A stretch of 25,324 nucleotides of DNA from a phage. A program made the position numbers and the translations under genes. Numbering within the stretch: the first letter of the stretch is position 1; the number at the start of each line of letters is the position of its first letter. The notes beneath the pieces were generated by a model that ran no database searches, was not told the origin of the DNA, and was given only the letters and a program-made list of their open reading frames with translations. Shown here in pieces: positions 6,501 to 15,197 of the stretch. Location of the stretch: assembly GCA_015694865.1 (NCBI GenBank), contig GCA_015694865.1_3933.1, one strand, 5' to 3'.

Positions 6501-6833
6501 CTATTTGTTTAAATCTACAGAGACTGAAGAGATAACATAGATACCTTCTTCAGCGAAGAATTGAGGTTTGCTAAGAGCACCAGTTGCCACGCATTTATCG
6601 TTAGCATCCCACAAGCTATAGTGTGAGACCGTTGCAGAAGCTGGAACAGTAATATTAACTGTATCTTCTGAGGCAATTAAGCCATTATCCGGTTCAGAAA
6701 AATAAATAGCCACTGGCTGAGTAACCTTATTTGCTGTAGGGTCTGCCGTTGGGTCTACATTGTGTAAAATAATAGTTGTTGGGGTTAGCGTGGCGAGGAT
6801 TTTATTCTTACCATCAATAGTTAATGTTCCCAT
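6501..6833 (-). CDS. hypothetical protein
   Basis: 110 aa ORF between portal and protease genes; T/S/V-rich, beta-rich appearance. Confidence 0.45.
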   Translation of the reverse strand: MGTLTIDGKNKILATLTPTTIILHNVDPTADPTANKVTQPVAIYFSEPDNGLIASEDTVNITVPASATVSHYSLWDANDKCVATGALSKPQFFAEEGIYVISSVSVDLNK

Positions 6834-14028: not shown

Positions 14029-14118
14029 GGCGGTAAGTAAAGGAGTCGAACCCTCACCGTATCTCTACAGTGGCAACTGTTTTCAAGACAGTTTGGCTAC
14101 CATTAGCCGCTACCTACC
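14029..14118 (-). tRNA. tRNA-Ser (anticodon TGA), class II
   Basis: About 88 nt; acceptor GGTAGGT/ACTTACC, D-stem GGC/GCC, anticodon stem ACTGT/ACAGT with loop CTTGAAA, long variable arm, T-loop TTCGACT; only CC of CCA encoded. Confidence 0.7.
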
Positions 14119-14131
14119 CCTAATAAGACTT

Positions 14132-14214
14132 TGGCATGGGACGGAGGAGTTGAACCCCTTTGAAACGGTTTTGGAGGCCGTTGCTCATGCCTTAGAGTCT
14201 TAACATCGTCCCAT
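14132..14214 (-). tRNA. tRNA-Trp-like (anticodon CCA) with abnormally long D-region; possibly a tRNA-like ncRNA
   Basis: 83 nt; perfect 7-bp acceptor ATGGGAC/GTCCCAT, T-loop TTCAACT, anticodon arm ACGGC-CTCCAAA-ACCGT, but about 16 nt between the D-stem strands. Confidence 0.5.
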
Positions 14215-14356
14215 ATTATAATTCGAAGCTTACCGTATTATCTCAACACTGTAAAGCCCCTTCTCAGATTATTTACATGTTCTGGAAAACATGAGATACA
14301 GACCACCTCCCTACAGGAAGACCCGCTTAGGTCGTCTAAGTAATCTGCTAACTAAT

Positions 14357-14433
14357 TGGCACACCCTACAGGATTCGAACCTGTAACTAACGATTTAGAA
14401 GACCGTTGCTCTATCCAATTGAACTAAGGGTGC
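14357..14433 (-). tRNA. tRNA-Arg (anticodon TCT)
   Basis: 77 nt; acceptor GCACCCT/AGGGTGT, D-stem GTTC/GAGC, anticodon stem ACGGT/ATCGT with loop CTTCTAA, T-arm ACAGG-TTCGAAT-CCTGT, CCA encoded. Confidence 0.8.
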
Positions 14434-14757: not shown

Positions 14758-14834
14758 TGGAGGTTCAGATGGGATTCGAACCCATCGCCTGTCAGATTAA
14801 AAGTCTGCCGCATCACCATTCTGCTACACTTCCA
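14758..14834 (-). tRNA. tRNA-Lys-like (anticodon TTT) with poorly paired acceptor stem (possible pseudo-tRNA)
   Basis: Paralogous in sequence to the 13612..13687 tRNA-Lys; good T-arm ATGGG-TTCGAAT-CCCAT and anticodon arm GCAGA-CTTTTAA-TCTGA, but acceptor strands GGAAGTG vs CTGAACC pair at only 3 of 7 positions. Confidence 0.45.
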
Positions 14835-14837
14835 TTA

Positions 14838-14981
14838 AATTATCTTTGTAGATAAGCTACCCAGACTTGCTTAATGTCTGTAGCGATGTGCCTTTTTGGG
14901 TTTAAATCTAGAATTTACCCTTTCACCCTTTGTGGTCGCATACTCACAGGTAAGCTTAATAACTTATCTACAAAGATAATT
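14838..14981. repeat. 19-bp perfect inverted repeat (14838-14856 / 14963-14981) flanking a 106-bp non-coding segment
   Basis: aattatctttgtagataag at 14838-14856 is the exact reverse complement of cttatctacaaagataatt at 14963-14981. Confidence 0.7.
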
Positions 14982-15030
14982 ACCAGACCGTTGTTTATCA
15001 TCTTAAGTGCTACCATTACACCAACTCGAC

Positions 15031-15080
15031 ATCTGCCGAGTGAAGGAATCGAACCTTCGCCTTTTCTTTACCGGAGAAAT
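15031..15080 (-). ncRNA. tRNA-like fragment (T-arm plus 3' acceptor strand without a pairing 5' strand)
   Basis: Reverse complement gives TTTCT-CCGGTAA-AGAAA, then GAAGG-TTCGATT-CCTTC-ACTCGGC; no complementary 5' acceptor strand or recognisable D-arm within about 80 nt upstream. Confidence 0.35.
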
Positions 15081-15120
15081 AGATTGTTTAAGTTTTGCTG
15101 AATACGGTCTTCTGCAAAAT

Positions 15121-15197
15121 TGGAGGCGGGTGCAGGAGTCGAACCTACCGATACCATGCTAATGAGACATGTGAGACGCCCTTTCTCTATACCCGCA
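15121..15197 (-). tRNA. tRNA-Met (anticodon CAT; elongator, initiator or Ile2 not distinguishable)
   Basis: 77 nt; T-arm GTAGG-TTCGACT-CCTGC, anticodon stem CATGT/GCATG with loop CTCATTA, acceptor ACCCGCC with a 1-72 T-C mismatch in the best register, CCA encoded. Confidence 0.6.

Follow-up and report, generated by a model that had tools for sequence, protein, structure and literature searches.

A non-canonical 83-nucleotide tRNA-Trp(CCA) gene carried by a Felix O1-like phage and its putative rearranged core

Background

The (8/4) transfer RNAs (tRNAs) and allo-tRNAs described by Mukai et al. in 2017 (PMC5389517) have a 12-base-pair (bp) branch, in which 8 bp belong to the acceptor stem and 4 bp to the T stem. 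In that paper, the examples from phage tRNA clusters include an (8/4) tRNA-Ser and an (8/4) tRNA-His, and an irregular (8/4) 'E-loop' tRNA is also described. Here we describe a gene with the same 12-bp branch and a similar phage-cluster setting, located at positions 14132..14214 on the minus strand of a 25,324-nucleotide (nt) stretch of phage DNA (contig GCA_015694865.1_3933.1; hereafter, the window). Judging from its sequence, this is likely to be the phage's own working elongator tRNA-Trp(CCA) gene, and its core is predicted to fold differently from that of the tRNAs named above.

Anatomy of the gene and comparison with described tRNAs

The gene and its parts are listed below. Counts out of 29 refer, here and throughout, to the long CCA members of the phage family to which the gene belongs, aligned to the family covariance model.

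14132..14214, minus strand: whole gene, an 83-nt non-canonical tRNA-Trp(CCA); RNA nt 1 is 14214 and nt 83 is 14132.
14207..14214, minus strand: 5′ strand of the acceptor stem, nt 1-8 (AUGGGACG), with 8 of 8 Watson-Crick pairs to 14136-14143.
14206, minus strand: A9, an unpaired junction adenine, which is A in 29 of 29 long family members.
14203..14205, minus strand: 5′ strand of helix X, the putative connector-variable helix, nt 10-12 (UGU), placed by family covariation.
14198..14202, minus strand: junction strand, nt 13-17 (UAAGA), with a U-A-A motif, placed by motif conservation.
14184..14197, minus strand: D-like hairpin, nt 18-31, CUC / UAAGGCAU / GAG, with GG in the loop, placed by covariation.
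14164..14182, minus strand: anticodon arm, nt 33-51, AACGG / CCUCCAAAA / CCGUU, placed by covariation.
14172-14174, minus strand: anticodon CCA, read from the sequence.
14161..14163, minus strand: putative 3′ strand of helix X, nt 52-54 (UCA), continuous with the 3′ strand of the anticodon stem.
14159..14160, minus strand: invariant AA (nt 55-56) that separates helix X from the T stem, from alignment A4 (29 sequences).
14144..14158, minus strand: T arm, nt 57-71, GGGG / UUCAACU / CCUC, with a 4-bp stem and a TPsiC-type loop.
14136..14143, minus strand: 3′ strand of the acceptor stem, nt 72-79 (CGUCCCAU), placed by pairing and covariation.
14132..14135, minus strand: discriminator G73 (14135) and encoded CCA end (14132-14134).

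The minus-strand sequence from 14214 to 14132 is AUGGGACGAUGUUAAGACUCUAAGGCAUGAGCAACGGCCUCCAAAACCGUUUCAAAGGGGUUCAACUCCUCCGUCCCAUGCCA, which we read in segments as AUGGGACG-A-UGU-UAAGA-CUC-UAAGGCAU-GAG-C-AACGG-CCUCCAAAA-CCGUU-UCA-AA-GGGG-UUCAACU-CCUC-CGUCCCAU-G-CCA. The features of an adaptor-type tRNA are all present, namely an N73-CCA acceptor helix, a TPsiCRA-type T loop, a U33/purine-37 anticodon loop and a GG loop. The T loop fits the GTTCRANYC motif seen in the tRNAs of the window, and the neighbouring tRNAs of the array likewise encode CCA. In the minimum-free-energy fold, the acceptor stem (8 bp) is followed by 9 unpaired nt, a small hairpin (3 bp with an 8-nt loop) and the anticodon arm; the variable region has 5 nt (UCAAA).

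This anatomy departs in part from a first-pass annotation, which had described a perfect 7-bp acceptor stem, well-formed T and anticodon arms, and an oversized D loop. The acceptor stem is indeed perfect, but it has 8 bp. The T arm is less regular than described: GGGG/CCUC gives four pairs only, one of them G.U, and the fifth pair of a 7/5 reading would be A.C. The anticodon is CCA, as stated, but with a 7-nt loop the anticodon stem closes on C31.A39 (C38.A46 counted along the gene), the alternative being a 5-bp stem with a 9-nt loop. About 7 extra nt separating the acceptor stem from the anticodon stem had also been reported, and this agrees with our measurement of 24 nt between the 8th acceptor pair and the anticodon stem, against about 18 in a standard tRNA.

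Compared with the canonical cloverleaf, the gene lacks the 7-bp acceptor stem, the 5-bp T stem, the 2-nt connector and the D stem at 10-13/22-25. It also lacks the long variable arm of allo-tRNA and tRNA-Sec-like forms, and their long D stem with a tetraloop immediately after nt 8-9. What it does have is the 12-bp branch of the (8/4) class, with its 8-bp acceptor stem and 4-bp T stem. As with the (8/4) tRNAs of Mukai et al., the tRNA-Sec model is favoured over the tRNA model, and standard tools miss or mis-annotate the gene: its sole tRNA-clan match at E<=10 is to the tRNA-Sec model RF01852, at 23 bits against a gathering threshold of 47. The species covered there differ from ours in being specific for Ser, His or Cys, or suppressors; in most of them the variable arm is long and the D stem, as in tRNA-Sec, comes immediately after positions 8-9. 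The available text of that paper (PMC5389517) mentions no Trp species and no pairing between positions 10-12 and the variable region.

Bacterial tRNA-Sec (RF01852) resembles the window gene in its 8-bp acceptor stem and in an anticodon stem extendable to six pairs (26-44 pairs). Unlike it, the window gene has no long variable arm and no UCA anticodon, its T stem has 4 rather than 5 bp, and its D region is otherwise organised. Meanwhile, Escherichia coli trpT has the same CUCCAAA anticodon loop, A1-U72 pair (A14214-U14136 in the window), G73, CCA end and CGG/CCG core of the anticodon stem, but it is a 76-nt canonical 7/5 cloverleaf with the D stem GUUC/GAGC and a U31-A39 pair. Mutations of tRNA-Trp(CCA) at positions 9, 24 and 27/43 are reported to lead to UGA read-through via hinge flexibility (PMC13092985). 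These UGA-reading variants (Hirsh G24A, A9C and a 4-bp anticodon stem) are similar to the window gene in having an altered hinge and/or an unpinned anticodon-stem pair. They are, however, point changes in a canonical cloverleaf with the top of the stem unpinned, whereas the window gene has a re-wired core with the bottom unpinned.

A Trp gene in the phage tRNA array

The window belongs to a Felix O1-like myovirus (Felixounavirus), with 98.9% identity over 1 kb to Escherichia phage HY02 and matches to 279 Felixounavirus-type records. Its minus-strand tRNA array comprises 22 genes called by ARAGORN, 21 of which pass the threshold of the Rfam tRNA model RF00005 (29 bits), and none of the 22 calls reads Trp codons. 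The 83-nt gene is located within a 238-nt gap between tRNA-Arg(UCU) (14357-14433) and tRNA-Ser(UGA) (14029-14118), on the array's own strand and 13 nt upstream of the latter. In relatives such as KhF1 and JohannRWettstein, tRNAs are found for 19 amino acids, Trp being the sole gap. The first-pass annotation had placed a Trp-like tRNA gene at precisely these coordinates and on this strand, a call borne out by the array position, the CUCCAAA loop, A1-U72, G73, the encoded CCA and the amino acid missing from the relatives.

The interval of the gene is present in about 230 Ounavirinae records, none of which has a tRNA annotation there, and homologues of the gene were found in 230-240 phage records. 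In Yersinia phage P778, the 83-nt element is the only part of the intergenic interval that can still be aligned, and Pectobacterium phages carry near-identical copies of the Yersinia-phage version. A host origin or prophage copy was rejected, as BLAST of the phage gene against 5,426 complete E. coli genomes returned no match at E<=10. Upstream of the gene there is a weak sigma-70-like site (14218-14246, minus strand; TTGAGA / 17-nt spacer / AATTAT, 9 of 12 matches) that ends 4 nt before its first base; such sites are no more numerous here than in shuffled sequences.

The recognised elements of Trp identity (PMC9976931) are the anticodon, the discriminator base and the first pair of the acceptor stem. 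At the exact same slot, about 23 Ounavirinae (wV8, phiSUSP1, LNA1 and others) carry another CCA tRNA, of 71 nt. This gene is called as tRNA-Trp(CCA) by ARAGORN and scores 29.8 bits with Rfam (LNA1 region, L007 1148-1637); its acceptor and T arm are trpT-like and its D arm is reduced. It is followed by an open reading frame (ORF) of 134 amino acids annotated as an HNH endonuclease, and the 71-nt allele looks like a replacement driven by a free-standing homing endonuclease. The slot is always occupied by a CCA tRNA, either the long or the 71-nt allele, and a tRNA with this anticodon is apparently not dispensable there.

We propose that the gene would be transcribed along with the minus-strand array and trimmed as its neighbours are, with RNase P and the 3′ enzymes using the 12-bp acceptor/T helix and the encoded CCA. 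The host tryptophanyl-tRNA synthetase (TrpRS) would then charge it with Trp by reading G73, A1-U72 and the CCA anticodon, and EF-Tu would bind the 12-bp branch and deliver the tRNA to UGG codons. The only tRNA-Trp copy in E. coli is trpT. Because E. coli has this one annotated gene, the phage copy would supplement a scarce host tRNA-Trp. According to Mukai et al. (PMC5389517), 12-bp 8/4 branches are compatible with EF-Tu-dependent translation.

The same features bear on the idea that the product is a tRNA-like RNA with some role other than that of an adaptor, such as a decoy, regulator, primer, processing signal or tRNA mimic, which we consider very unlikely. This idea would fit the rejection by tRNA finders and the strongly non-canonical core, and some irregular 8/4 tRNAs were indeed uncharged, or charged yet unused, in the work of Mukai et al. 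(PMC5389517). A non-adaptor, however, would have no need of the TrpRS identity set, with G73 in 29/29 members together with a CCA anticodon. The anticodon loop is laid out with U33 and purine 37, as in a decoding tRNA. Moreover, a conventional tRNA-Trp replaces the gene at this very slot in some Ounavirinae, and the gene supplies the only amino acid absent from the array.

The Trp gene is intact in a window whose neighbouring tRNA genes are chimeric or deleted. The tRNA-Lys(UUU) called at 14758-14833 (minus strand) is a chimera, with an 81-nt deletion relative to phage KhF1 that runs from the T loop of tRNA-Lys(UUU) to that of an adjacent CAU tRNA. The Lys body has been joined to the 3′ T-stem and acceptor strand of the CAU tRNA, which is thereby lost. 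The acceptor strands of the chimera (GGAAGUG / CUGAACC) are unpaired, and the ARAGORN call persists, with the anticodon at position 30. Meanwhile, the tRNA-Asp, tRNA-Tyr and tRNA-Asn of the relatives are absent from 14830-15121 (minus strand), where a degenerate remnant of a T arm and anticodon arm (15041-15091) scores a sub-threshold 22 bits with the Rfam tRNA model.

Covariation of the Ounavirinae-type genes

We aligned 17 distinct sequences of the Ounavirinae type, obtained from pattern scans of IMG/VR and metagenomes (alignment A1). A structure with the 8-bp acceptor stem, the hairpin, a 5-bp anticodon stem and the 4-bp T stem gives standard pairs in 96.8% of cells, as compared with 36-52% when the partners are slid. 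Two-sided changes are present in 14 of the 20 pairs, and none of 500 shuffles attains the observed measures. The acceptor stem contributes such changes in 6/8 pairs, and all three pairs of the D-like hairpin covary (CUC/GAG, CAC/GUG, CACA/UGUG, CGU/ACG). The five pairs of the anticodon stem are 100% paired, four of them with two-sided changes, the compensations being AACGG/CCGUU, GUAAG/CUUAC, GUAGG/CCUAC and ACUUG/CAAGU. The T stem is compensated in Mooglevirus, from GGGG/CCUC to UGGG/CCUA.

These data speak against the D loop of the first-pass annotation. A D stem UGUU/AGCA closing a 16-nt loop conflicts with the covarying helices and was rejected, since three of its four 3′ partners sit in other helices of this kind (columns 33, 34 and 36 of the alignment covary with columns 19, 18 and 54). 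A 7/5 reading with A.C at 49-65 was also rejected: the canonical 49-65 pair is formed in 0/29 members, against 29/29 for the 8th acceptor pair (G-C in 8, U-A in 18, U.G in 3). The first pass had named a canonical D-arm fold with another 5′ end as the result that would overturn it. No such fold emerged, and RF00005 is silent at E<=10, so that a canonical fold with an alternative 5′ end was rejected as well.

Infernal scoring had been proposed as a check. The Rfam tRNA model produces no match; a covariance model of the family gives 107.4 bits (E 1e-25) at the site; this model was built from the Ounavirinae subset and thus includes the window gene by construction. Its scores for 21 ordinary tRNAs of the window, which it matches as well, do not exceed 39.4 bits.

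The extra bases had been taken as a possible insertion into a tRNA. However, they are a conserved, structured part of the alternative fold, present in phages of very different hosts, and this supposed insertion is in fact the most conserved part of the gene. The UAAGA junction is the same in the Yersinia and Pectobacterium phage homologues, though every stem differs. On these comparisons, an insertion-bearing tRNA with an oversized D loop is the wrong anatomy, and the extra bases are no recent insertion into a canonical D loop.

A former canonical tRNA-Trp that acquired a 7-nt insertion and is now a decaying pseudogene would be in keeping with the decay of the array elsewhere (the chimeric Lys/CAU gene and the loss of Asp, Tyr and Asn), with the 31.39 mismatch and with a U.U in helix X. 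We give this explanation next to no likelihood, as compensatory changes maintain every stem across genera; further, the supposed insertion is what is conserved most, and the architecture is also found in Vequintavirinae, in Bacillus phages and in many uncultured phages. The covariation effectively rules the pseudogene out.

Bacterial genome contigs were also scanned for the connector motif of the Ounavirinae. The 53 pattern matches were rejected as members: none has the 8-bp acceptor architecture, and they turned out to be unrelated sequence or ordinary tRNAs preceded by the motif. We also rejected 'AUGUUAAGA' as a universal signature, since its invariance beyond the Ounavirinae is imposed by the search pattern; outside this group, the connector keeps A9 and U-A-A only.

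The proposed fold

An all-against-all screen of alignment columns revealed that the base two positions past the 8th acceptor pair covaries with a base of the variable region. Positions N10-N12, which follow A9, would run antiparallel to the three bases between the anticodon stem and the AA that precedes the T stem, forming helix X. The three pairs hold in 28/29, 26/29 and 13/29 members, respectively. Among 20 distinct helix-X combinations, 47 of 60 cells are paired, against 30.4 +/- 3.2 after shuffling, and 0/5000 shuffles attain this number. As the idea had been suggested by this first set, we assembled an independent one, comprising 11 distinct members with other T-stem sequences. A perfect 3-bp complement is found in 8 of these 11, compared with 2.0 +/- 1.2 in shuffles, 0/20000 of which reach 8. 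The complements are AGC/GCU, AAC/GUU, GGG/CCC, GGA/UCC, GAC/GUC, GUU/AAC, ACC/GGU and GUC/GGC. Counting helix-X pairs on a mixed model alignment gives a result in the same direction.

The sequence comparisons suggest the following order from the 5′ end: 8-bp acceptor stem, A9, 5′ strand of helix X, U-A-A, GG hairpin, anticodon arm, 3′ strand of helix X, AA and 4-bp T arm. Since helix X would enclose both the small GG hairpin and the anticodon arm, the predicted topology consists of two nested three-way junctions in place of one four-way junction. As modelled, helix X probably stacks on the anticodon stem, where the D stem normally would, and the GG hairpin may take over from the D loop in the elbow contact with the T loop. 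The window gene would form U10-A54 and G11-C53.

A wider family of long phage tRNA-Trp genes

The covariance model also matched a divergent Trp-type copy on a high-GC viral contig (L016 272-353); therefore, IMG/VR was scanned for CCA loops followed by the shared T arm. The scan yielded about 30 distinct tRNA-Trp genes, 81-86 nt long and belonging to phages of very different kinds; their 5′ ends all lie 36-40 nt ahead of the anticodon loop, against about 31 usually. ARAGORN misses nearly all of them. Pattern scans found the members of the wider family independently. BLAST placed them in Vequintavirinae (PVP-SE1, Av-05), Bacillus Bastillevirinae and Klebsiella/Proteus/Raoultella phages of about 142-150 kb.

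Several features are common to the family, and all those that define it are present in the window gene. Besides the invariant G73 and A9 (29/29 each), the CCA end is encoded in 26/29, and the 1-72 pair is A-U in 20 members, G.U in 5 and G-C in 4. A few bases past A9 comes the U-A-A motif (U in 27/29, A in 22/29, A in 27/29). Between connector and anticodon arm, all 29 members form a 3-7-bp hairpin, with differing stem sequences and with GG in nearly all loops (CGG in L260; only partly so in the loop of L263). The MAFFT alignment A4 of the 29 members mis-registers the connector and was excluded from the pair counts.

A few members carry a tRNA-Trp annotation, among them an 81-nt gene in Salmonella phage PVP-SE1 and an 84-nt gene in Bacillus phage TsarBomba; for these two, Rfam yields only sub-threshold tRNA-Sec matches. 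Both are like the window gene in the 8/4 branch, A9, helix X, U-A-A, GG hairpin, G73 and CCA anticodon. Their D-like stems, however, are longer (in PVP-SE1, 6 bp capped by a 3-nt loop), their helix-X sequence is another one, the 31-39 pair is normal or G.U, and they are annotated, unlike the copies of Felixounavirus and Mooglevirus. The Bacillus-phage versions (TsarBomba; L289 166-249) have a bulged A between acceptor pairs 7 and 8, and the Yersinia/Pectobacterium version (P778; L004 1499-1584) has an extra base in the 3′ strand of the acceptor stem. The kind of gene is thus already known, and the fold, an 8/4 branch plus a connector-variable helix, appears to be undescribed in the literature searched: a full-text search of incomplete coverage found no description of a long or 8/4 tRNA-Trp in phages, nor of the fold.

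Several observations weigh against a working tRNA-Trp with this fold. ARAGORN and RF00005, even at E<=10, do not find the gene. Its folding energy does not stand out (z = -1.39, with values of -0.2 to -0.9 among homologues), such z scores being usually uninformative for tRNAs. RNAalifold recovered four helices on the mixed alignment and did not propose helix X, so the evidence for this helix consists of pair counts and shuffles only. In the window gene it has just 2 bp and a U12.U52 mismatch; because its bases are invariant within the Ounavirinae, it is assigned there solely by homology with the wider family. The long allele has been replaced in about 10% of relatives, and its particular fold is thus dispensable. 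Decoding or the fit to the ribosome could suffer from the re-wired core and from C31.A39. Finally, an irregular 8/4 'E-loop' tRNA was uncharged in vitro in the study of Mukai et al. (PMC5389517).

Decoding of UGA and evasion of host defence

The hinge and the base of the anticodon stem raise the question of whether the tRNA might act as a near-cognate decoder. The re-wired hinge (9-12, 23-26, 44-45), together with C31.A39, would permit UGA to be read, which would make the product an opal read-through or suppressor tRNA. The positions whose mutation gives read-through (9, 24 and 27/43; PMC13092985) belong to the hinge that this family alters, the C31.A39 mismatch is present in 14/29 members, and bottom-unpinned tRNA-Trp variants occur in bacteria. 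Even so, the 31-39 pair is normal in about half of the family, and in the known read-through variants the stem is unpinned at its top rather than at its bottom. A stop-codon census of the window shows normal TGA use: TGA ends 7 of 35 long ORFs, with another stop 0-12 codons further on in all but one of them, probably a spurious ORF inside the tRNA array, and no gene is split by an in-frame TGA. UGA recoding in the window was thus rejected, and we regard UGA reading as a distinctly unlikely function.

Genes with other anticodons were also detected. An 8/4 branch with helix X is seen at L279 9828-9910, L268 ~6576-6654, L016 518-602 and L132 1013-1098, where the anticodons are UCC (Gly) and UUU and CUU (Lys), in each case with U73. 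Both Lys-type genes match the Ounavirinae connector GAUGUUAAGA exactly and have UCAA(A/C) as their variable region, although they are located in unrelated contigs, one of them of high GC content. The descriptor used for these other anticodons also catches canonical 77-nt tRNAs (G10/C11-G46/U47, U8-A65), so only 79-86-nt matches with a separate hairpin were retained.

The Lys anticodons touch on a further possibility, in which the gene specifies a working tRNA whose odd body evades host nucleases or toxins that cleave or deplete tRNAs. Such a spare part would allow phage translation to continue when the host tRNA-Trp (or Lys, Gly) is destroyed. The retron Eco2 paper cites a T5 tRNA acting against PARIS, phage tRNAs acting against retrons, and anticodon-loop variants; it also reports that Eco2 nicks acceptor stems, including that of tRNA-Trp, and that some retron effectors are suggested to cut D loops. 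The use of the same fold with Lys anticodons is in line with this, tRNA-Lys being a classic nuclease target, as is the maintenance of the fold across unrelated phages. On the other hand, no known nuclease picks tRNA-Trp via its D region, the anticodon loop, which is the usual cleavage site, is the same as the host's, and no feature of the window ties the gene to a defence or counter-defence gene. We therefore see evasion of defence as conceivable but unlikely.

Further RNA genes were noticed in other contigs. In the PVP-SE1 array, ARAGORN reports a 'tRNA-???' with a four-base anticodon (ggca) at L276 5994-6079. Apparently the same PVP-SE1 gene at L287 568-653 gives a sub-threshold tRNA-Sec match of 32 bits, and it is possibly another irregular tRNA. 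Two jumbo-phage contigs of IMG/VR, L258 (413 kb) and L265 (248 kb), carry transfer-messenger RNA genes beside their tRNA arrays, and L258 also encodes a CUA-anticodon tRNA (ARAGORN 'Pyl') that is likely an amber suppressor.

Implications

Taken as a functional tRNA-Trp, the gene may belong to an undescribed architecture, which combines the 8/4 branch with a strand-swapped D stem, a GG elbow hairpin and nested junctions, and which would serve many unrelated phages as a tRNA-Trp and occasionally as a tRNA-Lys or tRNA-Gly, perhaps altering UGA decoding or giving immunity to nucleases. We put this broader proposal forward tentatively, and its last parts, UGA reading or resistance to host tRNA nucleases, are speculative. 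If the fold is true, the L shape of tRNAs can be attained through a different secondary-structure topology in viruses that infect bacteria. This would bear on what RNase P, TrpRS, EF-Tu and the ribosome tolerate, as well as on the engineering of tRNAs, for which 8/4 and 9/3 chassis are in use already. What is altered here is the hinge in which point mutations make tRNA-Trp read UGA, and it is close to where some anti-phage nucleases cut; the gene would thus offer a natural variant with which both questions can be addressed.

Surveys of phage tRNA content based on ARAGORN or Rfam would undercount tRNA-Trp. More than 200 Felix O1-like, Moogle-like and related phages, several of which are therapy or typing phages, would gain their missing tRNA, and their arrays would then cover 20 amino acids.

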